Assembly: GCF_003334785.1 (NCBI RefSeq)
Contig: NZ_QOWV01000001.1
Source: Escherichia coli
GTDB taxonomy: Bacteria; Pseudomonadota; Gammaproteobacteria; Enterobacterales; Enterobacteriaceae
Length of the DNA stretch: 64,000 bases
Reading direction: 5' to 3' (one strand)
The translations under genes were made by a program, and so were the position numbers. Every line of letters begins with the position of its first letter. Positions within the stretch are counted from its first letter, which is position 1. Under the pieces are notes generated by a model, which worked only from the letters and a program-made list of their open reading frames with translations, was not told the origin of the DNA and ran no database searches. Positions 2,495 to 54,813 of the stretch are shown here, piece by piece.

Positions 2495-3775
2495 ATGACC
2501 GAACATACCAGCAGTTACTACGCCGCCAGTGCGAATAAATATGCACCATTCGACACGCTGAATGAGTCAATCACCTGCGACGTTTGCGTGGTTGGCGGCG
2601 GCTATACCGGGCTCTCCTCCGCGCTGCATCTGGCGGAAGCGGGCTTTGACGTAGTGGTTCTCGAAGCCTCACGCATCGGCTTTGGCGCAAGCGGGCGCAA
2701 TGGCGGACAGCTTGTGAACTCCTACAGCCGCGACATCGACGTGATCGAAAAAAGCTACGGCATGGACACCGCCCGTATGCTCGGCAGCATGATGTTCGAA
2801 GGTGGTGAGATCATCCGCGAACGTATCAAACGTTATCAGATTGACTGCGACTACCGCCCCGGCGGCCTGTTTGTGGCGATGAATGATAAACAGCTCGCCA
2901 CACTTGAAGAGCAGAAAGAGAACTGGGAACGCTACGGCAATAAACAGCTGGAATTGCTGGACGCCAACGCCATTCGCCGTGAAGTAGCCAGCGATCGCTA
3001 TACCGGTGCGCTGCTTGATCACAGCGGTGGGCATATTCATCCGCTAAACCTTGCCATTGGCGAAGCGGACGCCATCCGCCTCAACGGCGGGCGCGTGTAT
3101 GAACTTTCTGCCGTGACGCAGATCCAGCACACCACGCCAGCCGTTGTGCGAACTGCCAAAGGTCAGGTGACGGCGAAGTATGTGATTGTCGCCGGGAATG
3201 CGTATCTGGGCGATAAAGTAGAGCCGGAACTGGCGAAACGCAGCATGCCGTGCGGCACGCAGGTGATCACCACCGAACGGCTGTCGGAAGATTTAGCCCG
3301 TTCGCTGATCCCGAAAAACTACTGTGTGGAAGACTGTAACTATCTGCTTGATTACTACCGTCTTACCGCCGACAACCGCCTGCTGTACGGCGGCGGCGTG
3401 GTCTACGGCGCGCGCGACCCGGATGACGTTGAGCGCCTTGTGGTGCCGAAACTGCTGAAAACCTTCCCGCAGCTGAAGGGCGTGAAAATTGATTACCGCT
3501 GGACGGGCAACTTCCTGCTGACCCTGTCGCGTATGCCGCAGTTTGGTCGCCTCGATACCAACATCTATTACATGCAGGGCTACAGCGGCCACGGCGTGAC
3601 CTGTACTCATCTAGCCGGACGTTTGATTGCCGAACTGCTGCGCGGCGACGCCGAACGTTTCGATGCCTTCGCCAATCTGCCGCATTACCCGTTCCCCGGC
3701 GGGCGCACGCTGCGTGTGCCGTTTACCGCGATGGGCGCGGCGTATTACAGCCTGCGCGATCGTCTGGGCGTTTAA
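2495..3775 (+). CDS. puuB: gamma-glutamylputrescine oxidase (FAD-dependent)
   Basis: 426 aa ORF with N-terminal FAD dinucleotide fold VCVVGGGYTGLSSAL; start 2 nt after puuC stop. Confidence 0.9.
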   Translation: MTEHTSSYYAASANKYAPFDTLNESITCDVCVVGGGYTGLSSALHLAEAGFDVVVLEASRIGFGASGRNGGQLVNSYSRDIDVIEKSYGMDTARMLGSMMFEGGEIIRERIKRYQIDCDYRPGGLFVAMNDKQLATLEEQKENWERYGNKQLELLDANAIRREVASDRYTGALLDHSGGHIHPLNLAIGEADAIRLNGGRVYELSAVTQIQHTTPAVVRTAKGQVTAKYVIVAGNAYLGDKVEPELAKRSMPCGTQVITTERLSEDLARSLIPKNYCVEDCNYLLDYYRLTADNRLLYGGGVVYGARDPDDVERLVVPKLLKTFPQLKGVKIDYRWTGNFLLTLSRMPQFGRLDTNIYYMQGYSGHGVTCTHLAGRLIAELLRGDAERFDAFANLPHYPFPGGRTLRVPFTAMGAAYYSLRDRLGV

Positions 3776-3812: not shown

Positions 3813-5078
3813 ATGAGCAACAATGAATTCCATCAGCGTCGTCTTTCTGCCACTCCGCGCGGGGTTGGCGTGATGTGTAACTTCTTCGCCCAGTCGGCTG
3901 AAAACGCCACGCTGAAGGATGTTGAGGGCAACGAGTACATCGATTTCGCCGCAGGCATTGCGGTGCTGAATACCGGACATCGCCACCCTGATCTGGTCGC
4001 GGCGGTGGAGCAGCAACTGCAACAGTTTACCCACACCGCGTATCAGATTGTGCCGTATGAAAGCTACGTCACCCTGGCGGAGAAAATCAACGCCCTTGCC
4101 CCGGTGAGCGGGCAGGCCAAAACCGCGTTCTTCACCACCGGTGCGGAAGCGGTGGAAAACGCGGTGAAAATTGCTCGCGCCCATACCGGACGCCCTGGCG
4201 TGATTGCGTTTAGCGGCGGCTTTCACGGTCGTACGTATATGACCATGGCGCTGACCGGAAAAGTTGCGCCGTACAAAATCGGCTTCGGCCCGTTCCCTGG
4301 TTCGGTGTATCACGTACCTTATCCGTCAGATTTACACGGCATTTCAACACAGGACTCCCTCGACGCCATCGAACGCTTGTTTAAATCAGACATCGAAGCG
4401 AAGCAGGTGGCGGCGATTATTTTCGAACCGGTGCAGGGCGAGGGCGGTTTCAACGTTGCGCCAAAAGAGCTGGTTGCCGCTATTCGCCGCCTGTGCGACG
4501 AGCACGGTATTGTGATGATTGCTGATGAAGTGCAAAGCGGCTTTGCGCGTACCGGTAAGCTGTTTGCCATGGATCATTACGCCGATAAGCCGGATTTAAT
4601 GACGATGGCGAAAAGCCTCGCGGGCGGGATGCCGCTTTCGGGCGTGGTCGGTAACGCGAATATTATGGACGCACCCGCGCCGGGCGGGCTTGGCGGCACC
4701 TACGCCGGTAACCCGCTGGCGGTGGCTGCCGCGCACGCGGTGCTCAACATTATCGACAAAGAATCACTCTGCGAACGCGCGAATCAACTGGGCCAGCGTC
4801 TCAAAAACACGTTGATTGATGCCAAAGAAAGCGTTCCGGCCATTGCTGCGGTACGCGGCCTGGGGTCGATGATTGCGGTAGAGTTTAACGATCCGCAAAC
4901 GGGCGAGCCGTCAGCGGCGATTGCACAGAAAATCCAGCAACGCGCGCTGGCGCAGGGGCTGCTCCTGCTGACCTGTGGCGCATACGGCAACGTGATTCGC
5001 TTCCTGTATCCGCTGACCATCCCGGATGCGCAATTCGATGCGGCAATGAAAATTTTGCAGGATGCGCTGAGCGATTAA
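3813..5078 (+). CDS. puuE: 4-aminobutyrate aminotransferase (PLP-dependent class III)
   Basis: 421 aa ORF, class III aminotransferase; last gene of puu cluster. Confidence 0.9.
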   Translation: MSNNEFHQRRLSATPRGVGVMCNFFAQSAENATLKDVEGNEYIDFAAGIAVLNTGHRHPDLVAAVEQQLQQFTHTAYQIVPYESYVTLAEKINALAPVSGQAKTAFFTTGAEAVENAVKIARAHTGRPGVIAFSGGFHGRTYMTMALTGKVAPYKIGFGPFPGSVYHVPYPSDLHGISTQDSLDAIERLFKSDIEAKQVAAIIFEPVQGEGGFNVAPKELVAAIRRLCDEHGIVMIADEVQSGFARTGKLFAMDHYADKPDLMTMAKSLAGGMPLSGVVGNANIMDAPAPGGLGGTYAGNPLAVAAAHAVLNIIDKESLCERANQLGQRLKNTLIDAKESVPAIAAVRGLGSMIAVEFNDPQTGEPSAAIAQKIQQRALAQGLLLLTCGAYGNVIRFLYPLTIPDAQFDAAMKILQDALSD

Positions 5079-5092
5079 TAGCCCAAGGCAAT

Positions 5093-5180
5093 AATGTCTG
5101 ATGCGCTGCGCTTATCAGGCCTGCAAACGACGTATTGATTATGTATGCCGAATAAAGCATTCACGCCGCATCCGGCAAGT
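5093..5180. repeat. REP/BIME-type extragenic palindromic repeats
   Basis: Inverted GC-rich units tgatgcgctgcgcttatcaggcctgc ... gccgcatccggcaag between convergent puuE and pspF. Confidence 0.7.
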
Positions 5181-42738: not shown

Positions 42739-42745
42739 AACTGCA

Positions 42746-42840
42746 TAAAAAAATAGAGTCTGTCGACATCCGCCAGACTCTACAGTACACACAGCAGTGC
42801 ATCCGCGTCTTAAATCCGGCATTGTCTCCTCTGCGCCGGT
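42746..42840 (-). ncRNA. mcaS: small RNA McaS (IsrA)
   Basis: Minus-strand sequence ACCGGCGCAGAGGAGACAATGCCGGATTTAAGACGCGGATGCACTGCTGTGTGTACTGTAGAGTCTGGCGGATGTCGACAGACTCTATTTTTTTAT recognised from memory; ends in hairpin plus U-run; sits between abgR and smrA. Confidence 0.8.
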
Positions 42841-46217: not shown

Positions 46218-46339
46218 GCAGGTGAATGCAACGTCAAGCGATGGGCGTTGCGCTCCATATTGTCTTACTTCCTTTTTTGAATTACTGCATAGCACAATTG
46301 ATTCGTACGACGCCGACTTTGATGAGTCGGCTTTTTTTT
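46218..46339 (+). ncRNA. fnrS: FNR-activated small RNA FnrS
   Basis: GCAGGTGAATGCAACGTCAAGCGATGGGCGTTGCGCTCCATATTGTC...GACGCCGACTTTGATGAGTCGGCTTTTTTTT recognised from memory; terminal hairpin plus U8. Confidence 0.8.
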
Positions 46340-48101: not shown

Positions 48102-49037
48102 TTATTTCACTTCAACCACATTCAGCCGTAACTCATCCAACTGATTTTCATCTTCTTCTGGCTGCCAGCACGCCGGTTGTAGTGGGATCTCTTCGCGATC
48201 AAACGCCAGATCACCCCCGTTAACCACTTCAGAACCGTGGGTGATGCCTTTGAAATCGAACAGGTTGGTATCGCACAGATGCGACGGCACCACATTCTGC
48301 ATCGCGCTGAACATCGTCTCGATACGCCCTGGATAACGTTTATCCCAGTCACGCAACATGTCAGCAATCACCTGACGTTGCAGGTTAGGCTGTGAACCGC
48401 ACAGGTTGCACGGAATAATCGGGAACGCTTTTGCATCGGCAAATCGCTGAATATCTTTCTCGCGGCAGTAGGCCAGCGGACGAATAACGATATGTTTGCC
48501 ATCATCGCTCATCAGTTTCGGAGGCATACCTTTCATCTTACCGCCGTAGAACATATTTAAGAACAACGTTTGCAGGATATCGTCACGATGGTGACCCAAC
48601 GCGATCTTCGTCGCCCCCAGTTCCGTTGCGGTACGATAAAGGATACCGCGACGAAGGCGAGAACACAGTGAGCAAGTGGTTTTGCCCTCTGGAATCTTCT
48701 CTTTCACGATACCGTAAGTATTCTCTTCAACAATCTTGTACTCAACGCCCAGCTTTTCAAGATACTCGGGCAGAACGTGTTCCGGGAAGCCCGGTTGCTT
48801 TTGATCGAGGTTAACAGCCACCAGCGAAAAATTGATTGGCGCGCTTTGCTGCAAATTGCGCAGAATCTCCAGCATGGTATAGCTGTCTTTACCCCCGGAG
48901 AGGCAAACCATGATGCGATCGCCTTCTTCAATCATATTGAAGTCAGCAATGGCTTCGCCCACGTTACGACGCAGACGTTTTTGTAATTTGTTCAGGTTGT
49001 ATTGTTCTTTCTTACTAATTTCTTGATTTTGCGACAT
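48102..49037 (-). CDS. ttcA: tRNA 2-thiocytidine(32) synthetase (PP-loop ATPase)
   Basis: 311 aa ORF with PP-loop SGGKDS and Fe-S CxxC motifs. Confidence 0.9.
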
Positions 49038-49788: not shown

Positions 49789-50922
49789 TTAGAACTGATA
49801 AACCAGACCTAAAGCGACAATATCATCGGTAGAGATGCCATTGGCAGCGTAGAAGCTGTCATCTTCATCCAACAGGTTGATTTTATAGTCAACGTAGGTG
49901 GACATGTTTTTATTGAAATAGTAAGTCGCGCCAATATCGGCGTATTTAACCAGATCTTTATCATCAACACCTGCCGGGTTGTCTGCACCACCCGCAGCGT
50001 GCAGGTCACGGCCTTTAGACATCAGGAAAGAGACTGCCGGACGCAGACCAAAATCAAACTGGTACTGTGCAGTGACTTCAAAATTCTGGGTTTTGTTTGC
50101 CACAGCATAATCGCTGTCGCCAAACGGGGTCATATTACGCGTTTCTGAATACATGGTTGCCAGGTAAATATTGTTAGCATCGTATTTTAGCCCAGCAGTC
50201 CACGCGTCTGCTTTATCACCACCCGCCGCAGTATGGTTAACCTGGTCATTGGTGCGGTCAGAAGAGGTGTATGCCGCACCAGCGCTAAAGCCCATGCCTA
50301 AATCATATGTTGTGGAAAGACCCCAGCCGTCACCGTTTTCATGGCGAACATCACGTCCGTTGTTGGTGCCTTCCTGACCATTACTGGCTCCTTCGTTGTT
50401 ACCTTGATACTGCACCGCGAAGTTCAGACCATTTACCAGACCGAAGAAATCAGTATTACGATAAGTCGCGACGCCATTGGCTCGACCAGTCATAAAGTTG
50501 TCTGCATTGGTATAAGAGTCACCGCCAAATTCAGGCAGCATATCGGTCCAGCCTTCGATGTCGTACATTACGCCATAATTACGTCCGTAATCGAAAGAAC
50601 CGTAATCTGCAAATTTCAGCCCGGCAAATGCCAGACGGGTCCATGACTGGTTTTTTGAAGATTCAGTGTTGTTTGCCTGAATATTGTATTCCCATTGCCC
50701 GTAGCCAGTGAGTTGATCGTTAATTTGGGTTTCGCCTTTAAAACCCAGACGCGCATAGCTCTGGTCGCCATCTTTCGCTGAATTATCAGAAAAATAATGC
50801 AGGCCATCAACTTTGCCATACAGATCTAATTTGTTGCCGTCTTTATTATAAACTTCGGCTGCATGTGCAGCACCTGCGGCGAGCAGGGCAGGAATTAAAA
50901 GTGCCAGTACTTTGCTTTTCAT
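49789..50922 (-). CDS. ompN: outer membrane porin N (OmpC/OmpF family)
   Basis: 377 aa ORF, signal peptide, C-terminal ...VYQF. Confidence 0.9.
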
Positions 50923-51149
50923 TGAATAAATCCTTTAGTTATTTTATTTGCCTTTTATCCCCATTTCGGGGAGTGAAAACATCCTAAAGGAGAAGTTCAG
51001 TTAGCCGATAAATATCATTTGTTACGCCTTAAGTAAAACCTTAATCAAATAATTCCTCTGAAATGATAATAAGTCTGGTGAATGTATCGAAGATAATACA
51101 TACAAAATAAAAATTATACTTTTAATTTGCTATACGTTATTCTGCGCGG

Positions 51150-51258
51150 GTTATATGCCTTTATTGTCACAGATTTTATTTTCTGTTGGGCCATTGCATT
51201 GCCACTGATTTTCCAACATATAAAAAGACAAGCCCGAACAGTCGTCCGGGCTTTTTTT
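51150..51258 (+). ncRNA. micC: small RNA MicC (ompC-targeting)
   Basis: GTTATATGCCTTTATTGTCACAGATTTTATTTTCTGTTGGGCC...AGCCCGAACAGTCGTCCGGGCTTTTTTT recognised from memory; terminal hairpin plus U-run; between ompN and pfo. Confidence 0.8.
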
Positions 51259-51288
51259 TTAGAATTGGATAATCCTTATCCAGAGCAT

Positions 51289-54200
51289 TTAATCGGTGTT
51301 GCTTTTTTCCGCTTTTCCGGCCATTTGTGCCAGGAAGTCATAGCGTTTTTGCAAATCAGCTGCAGCATCTTTCCATAACTGTTCTGCCACTTCTGGCTGC
51401 TGCGAATTCAGCCGACGGAAACGTTGCTCGTGAAGTAACGTTTCTTCCAGTGCTTCTGACGGCGGGCGTGAATCCAAGGCCAGCGGCAGTTTGCCTTCAT
51501 CGGCACGACGCGGATCAAAGCGATATAGCGGCCAGAAGCCGGTAGCTGTGAGTTGGCGCATCTGGTCGTGGCTGAGTGCCAGATCGTAACCATGCTCTTC
51601 ACACGGGCTATAAGCAATGATCAGCGATGGCCCCGGATACGCTTCCGCTTCCTGAATCGCTTTCACCGTCTGGTTCAGCTGCGCGCCGAGAGAAATCTGC
51701 GCCACATAAACATGACCGTACATCATCATACTGACGCCAAGATCTTTACGCGCTTTACGTTTGCCGTGCTCGCCAAATTTAGTTACTGCACCCAGCGGTG
51801 TCGCTTTCGACGCCTGACCACCGGTGTTGGAATAGCATTGCGTATCCAGCACCAGAATGTTGACGTTTTCCGTCAAACTCAATACATGATCCAGACCGCC
51901 AAAGCCGATATCGTAAGCCCAGCCATCACCACCAATCAGCCAGATTGATTTTTCCACCAGTGCATCTGCATCACGTAGCAGTTCATGTGCTTCGGCAACA
52001 TCGTTGAGTTGCTGGCGTAAAGCTGCAACCTGTTCACGACGAACCTCTGGCGTGGCGTCTGATTTCAACGCCGTCAGTAATTCCGCCGGGATTTTATCGG
52101 CAAATTGATCCAGCAGACGCAGCACGCGGACACGGTGTTGATCGACCGTCAGGCGGAAACCAAGGCCAAATTCGGCATTATCTTCAAATAGAGAGTTCGC
52201 CCATGCCGGCCCACGACCGTTGGCATCGGTGGTATACGGTGTAGAGGGCAGGTTACCGCCATAAATTGAAGAACAGCCAGTGGCGTTAGCGATCAACATC
52301 CGGTCGCCATAGAGCTGAGTCAGTAATTTAATATACGGCGTCTCGCCACAACCGGAGCAAGCACCTGAATATTCAAACAGCGGTGTAATCAGCTGCGATG
52401 TACGAATATCAATACGTTCCAGTTTGCTACGGTCGATTTCTGGCAGGTTGAGGAAGAAATCGTAATTGATTTTCTCTTCTTCGACATGTTCCAGGCGAGA
52501 CATCATATTGATGGCTTTAATCTCTGGATTCTGACGGTCTTTCGCCGGGCAAACTTCGACGCACAGGTTACAACCGGTGCAATCTTCCGGTGCCACCTGC
52601 AAGACATATTTCTGCCCGCGCATATCACGCGATTTCACATCCAGCGAATGCAGGCTGGCAGGGGCGTTTTCCATCGCTTCAGGCGGCACCACTTTTGCGC
52701 GAATAGCTGAGTGTGGGCAAGCGGCAACGCAGTGGTTACATTGGGTACAGAGTTCCTCTTTCAAGATGGGGATCTCTTCGGCGATATTGCGTTTTTCCCA
52801 GCGCGTAGTGCCCATCGGCCAGGTGCCGTCTGGCGGCAGCGCCGAAACGGGGAGGGCGTCACCAAGCCCGGCGAGCATCGCAGCGGTTACGGTTTTCACG
52901 AAATCAGGGGCGGCATCGGAAACCACTGGCGGTCGATTGGCGCTGTGCGGATTTACCGGTTGCAACGGAACTTCTTCTACGGATTCACGCGCCAGCGCCA
53001 GAGCCTGCCAGTTGCGTTCCACCAGATCCTGGCCTTTGCTACTGTAACTTTTGGCAATCGCACCCTGCAATTCTGCGAGGGCGCTATCGCCAGGCAGAAT
53101 TTGCGTCAGATGGAAAAAAGCCATCTGCATGACGGTATTAATACGGGCCGCCAGGCCACATTCGCGGGCGATTTTCGCCGCGTTAATCACATAGAAGCGC
53201 GCTTTTTTCTGGTTTAACACGGCCTGAACTTCTTGCGGCAAGCGCGACCACACTTCATCTGCGCTGTACGGCGTGTTGAGCAGGAAAATGCCGCCAGGTT
53301 TTAAACGCTCAGCCATCTGATATTTATCGATAAACTGCAACTGGTGGCAGCCAACAAAATCAGCCTGGGAAATGAGATAAGCGGAACGAATCGGCTGTTC
53401 GCTCACTCGAAGGTGAGAAACCGTCAGGCCGCCCGCCTTTTTGGAGTCGTAAACAAAATAGCCCTGTGCGTACCACGGCGTGGAATTACCGATAATCTTG
53501 ATATTGTTTTTGGTCGCGGAAACGCTGCCATCACTACCAAGGCCATAAAACAAGGCTTCCAGTTTCGCCGAGTTTGGCAGGGTGTTTTCCGGCAACGGCA
53601 GTGACAGATTGGTCACATCATCGTAAATACCAACCGTAAAGCGCGCTTTCGGTTTAGCCGCGTTGAGCTCGGCAAATACCGCCAGTACACAGTCTGGGCC
53701 AAATTCTTTGGATGAAAGACCATAGCGCCCACCAATGACACGGGGCAGAGTTTCGCGCTCGCCATTATTAAAGGCTTCTGCCAGTGCGGTCATTACATCC
53801 AGATAGAGCGGTTCTGCCTGGGCACCGGGTTCTTTGGTTCTGTCCAGTACCGCCACGCTGCGTACGGATCCCGGCAGAGCTTGCAGTAAATGTTTAGCGG
53901 AGAAGGGGCGGTACAGGCGAACTTTCAGCACGCCAACTTTTTCGCCACGGGTTAGCAATTCATCAACCACTTCTTCACAGGTGCCAATGGCAGAGCCCAT
54001 CAGGATAATCACCCGTTCCGCTTGCGGATGCCCGTAATATTCAAACGGCTGATACTGACGACCTGTCGCGGCAGAGAAATCATTCATCGCCTGTTCAACA
54101 TGGTCATAGACCGCGTTGTACCATGGGTTGGTGGCTTCGCGAGACTGGAAATAAGTGTCAGGATTGGCGGACGTACCGCGGATCACCGGATGTTCCGGGT

Positions 54201-54813
54201 TGAGTGCCCGGGCGCGATGAGCATCAATTTCGACCTGCGGCATGAGATCAAGAATCGTGTCATCGGCCAGCGGGACAATTTTATTGATTTCGTGGGACGT
54301 GCGGAAACCATCAAAGAAATGAATAAATGGCACGCGGCTTTTCAGCGTCGCGATTTGCGAAATGAGAGCAAAGTCTTGCGCTTCCTGGACGTTTGCTGCA
54401 CACAACATCGCGCAACCCGTCTGGCGCACCGCCATAACGTCGGAATGATCGCCAAAAATAGAGAGTGCATGTGTGGCAACGGTACGTGCCGCTACATGCA
54501 GGACAAACGGTGTTAGTTCGCCTGCCAGTTTGTACAGCGTCGGGATCATCAGCAGCAAACCCTGCGATGACGTAAACGATGTTGAAAGGGCACCCGTCTG
54601 CAAAGCGCCATGCACGGTAGCGATAGCACCCGCTTCCGACTGCATTTCAACCACGCGTGGTGTGTCTCCCCAAACGTTCTTTAAGCCGTTTCCGGCCCAG
54701 GCATCAGCCTGTTCTGCCATCGTGGAACTGGGGGTAATAGGGTAGATGGCGATAACTTCACTGGTGCGAAATGCGACCGAAGCAACCGCGCCATTACCGT
54801 CAATAGTAATCAT
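51289..54813 (-). CDS. pfo: pyruvate:flavodoxin/ferredoxin oxidoreductase
   Basis: 1174 aa ORF, single-chain PFOR with 4Fe-4S ferredoxin motifs (CxxCxxCxxxCP). Confidence 0.9.
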   Translation of the reverse strand: MITIDGNGAVASVAFRTSEVIAIYPITPSSTMAEQADAWAGNGLKNVWGDTPRVVEMQSEAGAIATVHGALQTGALSTSFTSSQGLLLMIPTLYKLAGELTPFVLHVAARTVATHALSIFGDHSDVMAVRQTGCAMLCAANVQEAQDFALISQIATLKSRVPFIHFFDGFRTSHEINKIVPLADDTILDLMPQVEIDAHRARALNPEHPVIRGTSANPDTYFQSREATNPWYNAVYDHVEQAMNDFSAATGRQYQPFEYYGHPQAERVIILMGSAIGTCEEVVDELLTRGEKVGVLKVRLYRPFSAKHLLQALPGSVRSVAVLDRTKEPGAQAEPLYLDVMTALAEAFNNGERETLPRVIGGRYGLSSKEFGPDCVLAVFAELNAAKPKARFTVGIYDDVTNLSLPLPENTLPNSAKLEALFYGLGSDGSVSATKNNIKIIGNSTPWYAQGYFVYDSKKAGGLTVSHLRVSEQPIRSAYLISQADFVGCHQLQFIDKYQMAERLKPGGIFLLNTPYSADEVWSRLPQEVQAVLNQKKARFYVINAAKIARECGLAARINTVMQMAFFHLTQILPGDSALAELQGAIAKSYSSKGQDLVERNWQALALARESVEEVPLQPVNPHSANRPPVVSDAAPDFVKTVTAAMLAGLGDALPVSALPPDGTWPMGTTRWEKRNIAEEIPILKEELCTQCNHCVAACPHSAIRAKVVPPEAMENAPASLHSLDVKSRDMRGQKYVLQVAPEDCTGCNLCVEVCPAKDRQNPEIKAINMMSRLEHVEEEKINYDFFLNLPEIDRSKLERIDIRTSQLITPLFEYSGACSGCGETPYIKLLTQLYGDRMLIANATGCSSIYGGNLPSTPYTTDANGRGPAWANSLFEDNAEFGLGFRLTVDQHRVRVLRLLDQFADKIPAELLTALKSDATPEVRREQVAALRQQLNDVAEAHELLRDADALVEKSIWLIGGDGWAYDIGFGGLDHVLSLTENVNILVLDTQCYSNTGGQASKATPLGAVTKFGEHGKRKARKDLGVSMMMYGHVYVAQISLGAQLNQTVKAIQEAEAYPGPSLIIAYSPCEEHGYDLALSHDQMRQLTATGFWPLYRFDPRRADEGKLPLALDSRPPSEALEETLLHEQRFRRLNSQQPEVAEQLWKDAAADLQKRYDFLAQMAGKAEKSNTD

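Follow-up and report, generated by a model that had tools for sequence, protein, structure and literature searches.

The small RNA MicC of Escherichia coli is described as a 109-nt, Hfq-associated molecule that blocks 30S binding on ompC mRNA, with which it forms a 22-bp duplex near the start codon, and in the same account its gene is transcribed in the direction opposite to ompN (Dam et al., 2017, PMC5745476). Hfq speeds the annealing of MicC more than 250-fold (PMC4911921). The Salmonella RNA belongs to the same family, the locus of S. enterica arizonae reaching 124.9 bits with the Rfam model and agreeing with E. coli in the terminator and in every base of the 20-nt seed. Unlike what is described for E. 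coli, Salmonella MicC has an additional target, ompD, with which the same seed pairs inside the coding sequence, leading to decay by RNase E (PMC4911921). The ompC-micF pair resembles the ompN-micC pair in that the gene of an Hfq-dependent small RNA lies divergent from a porin gene, and MicF and MicC each repress a different major porin by pairing of the 5' end near the ribosome binding site (RBS) (PMC5745476). MicF differs in its sequence family, in its target (ompF) and in its activators, which are OmpR, SoxS and MarA.

The expression of MicC is poor in many laboratory conditions (PMC12266141), and micC is silenced by H-NS (PMC5745476). Fusions of micC and ompN to lacZ were found to be co-induced by beta-lactams, on depletion of sigma-E and in an hns mutant, the OmpN protein being detectable only without sigma-E or H-NS, and the authors of that study suggest a joint control of OmpC and OmpN levels (Dam et al., 2017, PMC5745476). 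An ompR null mutation produces a slight rise in micC-lacZ (PMC5745476), and OmpR has not been shown to act on micC directly (PMC5175337). In a 2026 preprint, MicC was reported to have roles in the fitness of ExPEC, in several host niches, some dependent on OmpC and others independent of it (10.64898/2026.07.27.741068); this, together with porin balance and the beta-lactam response, constitutes the relevance of MicC according to prior knowledge.

This article describes the micC locus of an E. coli strain (assembly GCF_003334785.1) within a stretch of 64,000 nucleotides of contig NZ_QOWV01000001.1, referred to as the window. The identity of the gene, its anatomy, its complementarity to K-12 ompC, its conservation and its synteny were established here; that the gene is transcribed, that the RNA depends on Hfq and represses translation, and that OmpR, sigma-E, H-NS and beta-lactams regulate it, is taken from the literature. 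The gene is already known, being letter for letter that of K-12, and as such adds nothing new. The value of the analysis is one of annotation: a real non-coding gene is placed where the RefSeq PGAP annotation shows only nifJ, and a false open reading frame (ORF) of 83 aa is removed.

Identity and neighborhood of the micC gene

The plus strand at 51150..51258 (GTTATATGCC...CCGGGCTTTTTTT, also written GTTATATGCCTTTATTGTCACAG...AAGCCCGAACAGTCGTCCGGGCTTTTTTT) spans 109 nt and is identical to the first 109 nt of the micC annotation of K-12 MG1655 (b4427, ncRNA, plus strand, 1437121..1437231), which as a whole equals window positions 51150..51260. The 109-nt form of MicC, as given in the published account, corresponds to 51150..51258 (PMC5745476). 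An earlier sequence-only reading of this DNA had taken the plus strand for MicC and had proposed an Rfam search as a check. When the whole window was scanned with Rfam 15 at gathering thresholds, a strong match to the MicC family RF00121 was obtained at 51147..51267 on the plus strand, which covers model positions 1-123 of 123 and scores 125.0 bits, the curated gathering score being 90 bits (E-value 2.3e-19 for the whole window, 2e-21 in a local scan). This full-length match and the 100% identity with K-12 bear out the assignment, and 51150..51258 (+) is almost certainly micC, the gene of the Hfq-dependent, trans-acting small RNA MicC. The scan of the window yielded three matches only, namely MicC, FnrS and McaS, and no match to MicF.

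The similarity to K-12 extends over the surroundings of the gene. All 109-111 nt of micC and the flanking 290 bp are the same in MG1655, and positions 50900..51300, from the start of ompN through the end of nifJ/ydbK, align with 401 of 401 columns identical. The gene order in MG1655 is ompN (b1377, minus strand), micC (b4427, plus strand) and ydbK (b1378, minus strand), so that neighbors and orientation are shared by both strains, as are the ompC-complementary seed and the terminator. In the window, ompN occupies 49789..50922 on the minus strand and encodes a quiescent porin of the OmpC family (NCBIfam NF007841, porin OmpC subfamily, 593.8 bits); it is identical to K-12 ompN at 1133 of 1134 nt and is divergent from micC across a spacer of 227 bp. 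The gene named nifJ, ydbK or 'pfo', for pyruvate:ferredoxin (flavodoxin) oxidoreductase, is found at 51289..54813 on the minus strand (TIGR02176, 1622.6 bits), is convergent with micC and is identical to K-12 ydbK at 3523 of 3525 nt. Thus, relative to MG1655, micC is unchanged, ompN differs by 1 nt and ydbK by 2 nt. The position between ompN and pfo and the orientation divergent from ompN, both proposed from the sequence beforehand, agree with these coordinates and with the K-12 annotation.

The mechanical list of ORFs contains an 83-aa frame with a TTG start at 51127..51378 on the plus strand, and the region could in principle be protein-coding, its resemblance to an RNA being incidental. This frame is open in the window; however, its TTG lies inside the micC promoter, and from there it crosses micC with its terminator hairpin and U run before continuing on the antisense strand of the 3' end of nifJ. 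NCBIfam families give no match to it, neither the K-12 annotation nor that of a RefSeq genome lists it, and none of the 14 relatives compared keeps the frame open, E. coli E69, E. whittamii and two other Escherichia being among them. In addition, a full-length Rfam match of 125 bits cannot be incidental. A genuine 83-aa protein is therefore so improbable as to be negligible, and the frame is spurious, as had been claimed from the sequence.

Two other small RNA genes were detected in the window. FnrS, an anaerobically induced small RNA, is located at 46218..46335 on the plus strand, about 5 kb from micC (full-length RF01796, 134.8 bits, gathering score 60); it is also found 8-10 kb from micC in Citrobacter amalonaticus (L041) and in Pseudocitrobacter (L011). 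McaS/IsrA is encoded at 42745..42840 on the minus strand (full-length RF00115, 118.4 bits, gathering score 42). Between FnrS and ompN, ttcA is intact at 48102..49037 on the minus strand (311 aa, TtcA equivalog, 513.5 bits). In MG1655, by contrast, the Rac prophage splits ttcA and only the ttcC pseudogene fragment adjoins uspF; Rac is absent from the window, and the intact ttcA points to a K-12-like strain without Rac. The order dbpA-ttcA-uspF-ompN is the same as in strain 120899.

Pairing region, central stem and terminal hairpin

The 5' target-pairing (seed) region comprises nt 1-22 of MicC (51150..51171, plus strand) and was assigned by complementarity to the ompC leader. Nucleotides 1-16 are a perfect Watson-Crick complement of positions -30..-15 of the K-12 ompC leader, the segment expected for pairing at about these positions being AAUAAAGGCAUAUAAC, and nt 17-21 pair further upstream in the leader, across an 11-nt bulge. 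These 16 + 5 computed pairs reproduce the duplex of 22 bp described close to the start codon of ompC (PMC5745476). The duplex was evaluated with the 30-nt 5' end of MicC and K-12 ompC, the strain's own ompC being located outside the window, and reaches -26.5 kcal/mol vs. -13.8 +/- 2.5 for shuffled seeds, none of the 1000 being as good. For full-length MicC and the ompC leader the energy is -61.1 kcal/mol and that of the shuffles -45 +/- 5 with a minimum of -60, a comparison that is uninformative at such length. In this strain, an unstructured 5' end of about 22 nt would pair with the ompC mRNA leader just upstream of the RBS, and this pairing would block 30S binding and lower the synthesis of the OmpC porin.

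An AUG is present within the invariant seed at nt 6-8 and opens a reading frame in every homologue (MPLLSQILFSVGPLHCH, 17 aa in the window), as would be the case if MicC were a dual-function RNA that also encodes a peptide. Nevertheless, the length of this ORF varies from 7 to 35 aa among homologues, and conservation ends after codon five, the codons up to there being dictated by the seed. Just 5 nt precede the AUG, leaving no Shine-Dalgarno sequence, and the MicC literature consulted reports no such peptide. The existence of this peptide, and with it a dual function of MicC, is extremely doubtful.

Downstream of the seed, the Rfam consensus structure contains a central stem-loop (51184..51218, plus strand) in which UGUUGG at 51184..51189 pairs with CCAACA at 51213..51218 around a variable loop. 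This stem was assessed by explicit counting of pairs, and its support is modest, as MAFFT misaligns the variable middle of the RNA: 87.6% of cells are paired in 34 distinct sequences, and two of the six pairs are changed on both sides, e.g., from C-G to U-A. When RNAalifold was applied to the MAFFT alignment, the terminator alone was recovered. The folding energy of MicC as a whole is unexceptional (z = -1.75), with 14 of 200 shuffles folding as well.

The 3' part of the gene contains an intrinsic terminator that was identified on both strands at 51230..51260. It consists of a GC-rich, 10-pair hairpin at 51230..51253 (AAGCCCGAAC-AGTC-GTCCGGGCTT) and a run of nine T at 51252..51260, in keeping with the terminal hairpin and U-run described in the sequence-only reading. 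A hairpin with a U tail is the usual Hfq-binding module, contacted through the proximal face, of the class of small RNAs to which MicC belongs; a predicted Rho-independent terminator of this form, as in Hfq-dependent small RNAs, is present here. In the alignment of 35 sequences, 99% of the cells of the terminator stem are paired, and one pair covaries from C-G to U-A in four sequences. For the whole named structure the proportion is 95%, compared with 27.6-52.6%, mostly about 30%, when the 3' partners are slid by 1-3 columns. The covariation is modest, as expected among close relatives.

The stem includes an A·C mismatch at 51237/51246, which also occurs in K-12 and in Escherichia sp. MOD1-EC7003, the pair being A-U in the other 33 sequences. 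On the minus strand the mismatch becomes G·U, and the hairpin is thus expected to be slightly stronger for nifJ than for micC. The micC terminator was not listed by the consensus terminator scan of the plus strand, which is explained by the rules of the scan, since the A·C mismatch on that strand is a permitted G·T on the minus strand. Matches of amino-acid-leader families to the hairpin were also obtained (19-23 bits vs. gathering scores of 41-55); they are sub-threshold and were rejected as chance matches.

On the minus strand, the same hairpin is followed by GTCTTTTTAT and was scored as terminator-like at 51253..51230, 36 nt past the nifJ stop. Because of this arrangement, the hairpin is a predicted bidirectional terminator, shared by micC and nifJ/ydbK: transcription of micC would stop at the hairpin and U run (51230..51260), where the convergent transcript of nifJ/ydbK would also be terminated. 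The minus-strand score raises the question of whether what is conserved is no more than a terminator or 3' UTR belonging to nifJ/ydbK, with the plus strand giving no transcript of its own. However, the conservation runs about 80 nt past the hairpin, away from nifJ, and the 20-nt seed, the -10 hexamer and the upstream blocks are all oriented for transcription of the plus strand, the seed being complementary to ompC. A permissive Rfam scan of both strands of 50850..51400 revealed nothing else significant beside MicC on the plus strand, the minus strand scoring just 21.5 bits for MicC. Moreover, a plus-strand RNA of exactly this sequence is documented experimentally in K-12, as stated in the published account (PMC5745476). 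We consider the notion of a mere nifJ 3' element scarcely credible and retain that of a plus-strand micC gene whose terminator would also serve nifJ.

The control region shared with ompN

The putative promoter region of micC (51104..51143, plus strand) was delimited by aligning 17 enterobacterial upstream regions. A -10 hexamer, TATTCT, is conserved at 51138..51143 (-12..-7) and is followed by the GC-rich discriminator GCGCGG. An invariant A/T block of 16 nt, AAAATAAAAATTATAC, is located at 51104..51119 (-46..-31), over the -35 position, and the motif GTGAATG is conserved at 51078..51084 (-72..-66). In the consensus scan, no sigma-70-like site was found on the plus strand for micC, which suggests that the promoter is weak or non-canonical. 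The promoter fragment of the micC-lacZ fusion of Dam et al. stops exactly at -1, the primer SD2 corresponding to 51132..51149 (PMC5745476).

For ompN, the same type of scan gave a promoter-like site on the minus strand at 51063..51090 (TCGATA, 16-nt spacer, TATCAT), which agrees with the consensus at 9 of 12 positions, as many as chance would give. The -10 region of this site (GATAAT on the plus strand) is conserved in the alignment of the 17 regions. The start site of ompN is known from prediction only (PMC5745476). The spacer of 227 bp between ompN and micC has a GC content of 30%, vs. 50.5% for the window, which fits the reported silencing by H-NS. The first nucleotide of the micC transcript would be G51150, and its weak promoter would lie in this AT-rich control region, common to micC and the divergent ompN.

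The AAAATAAAAATTATAC block and GTGAATG are common to 17 species of at least six genera, including Escherichia, Salmonella, Citrobacter and Klebsiella, and are situated between the back-to-back promoters of micC and ompN. It is conceivable, though on balance unlikely, that they form the operator of a direct regulator that co-controls both genes; on such a reading of the conserved motifs, the regulator may be OmpR or another factor. Alternatively, the A/T block would merely be an UP-element or a -35 region.

The sequence-only reading had referred to a known reciprocal regulation of ompC and ompN. The divergent layout of the locus is consistent with it; however, what the literature shows is co-induction of the micC and ompN promoters, the switch itself being only suggested. 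The literature thus offers reciprocal switching between OmpC and OmpN as a reasonable hypothesis, without having established it.

Distribution of micC in E. coli and other Enterobacteriaceae

Of 5426 complete E. coli genomes, 5048 contain the 201-bp query that covers the micC region, 3526 of them at an identity of at least 99%, and the remaining 378 gave no megablast match to this query. In 133 genomes the allele of the region is only 80-90% identical. The small RNA is routinely unannotated outside K-12, nifJ being the only gene listed by RefSeq/PGAP under the micC query.

Relatives were collected by searching the seed pattern GTTANATGCCTTTATTNTCA in one genome per species, which yielded 45 loci; by our own estimate, about 9 hits are expected by chance for a pattern of 18 specified bases in 298 Gb. 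Thirty-four of the loci belong to Enterobacteriaceae (Escherichia, Salmonella, Citrobacter, Klebsiella, Pseudocitrobacter, Superficieibacter and a Raoultella MAG), and in all 34 the seed is followed by a middle part that varies and then by the conserved terminator GACAAGCCCGAAC...GTTCGGGCTTTTTTT, also written GACAAGCCCGAAC....GTTCGGGC followed by a T run. The other 11 come from unrelated phyla and have neither a MicC-type terminator at the corresponding position nor ompN or nifJ nearby; one of them (L028) has an unrelated run of seven T at nt 23. The invariance of nt 1-20 is partly circular, as these positions are the search pattern, the two free N positions being likewise invariant among the enterobacterial loci.

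The Rfam gathering score for MicC was passed by 9 of the 12 loci scanned, with 98.8-124.9 bits. The loci of Superficieibacter (L005), Pseudocitrobacter (L011) and Enterobacteriaceae UBA5654 (L016) have a shorter middle and score below 90 bits. By their seed, terminator and synteny with nifJ these three are clear MicC homologues, and genes of this type would escape standard Rfam annotation, which applies the gathering score of 90 bits.

The order porin (minus), micC (plus), nifJ (minus) was observed in all related enterobacterial loci whose flanks are long enough to show it, with the exception of two Salmonella subspecies. In S. enterica arizonae (L026) and diarizonae (L044), nifJ adjoins micC and no ompN homologue is found beside it within about 3-4 kb, which indicates that the divergent porin partner is not universal. 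A disrupted form of the locus occurs in E. coli EM18-18-42 (NZ_CP063473.1), an isolate from chicken meat, where the 5' end of ompN, the intergenic region and the 5' half of micC have given way to an IS1B element (4290..5096 of locus L049), leaving positions 106-201 of the query.
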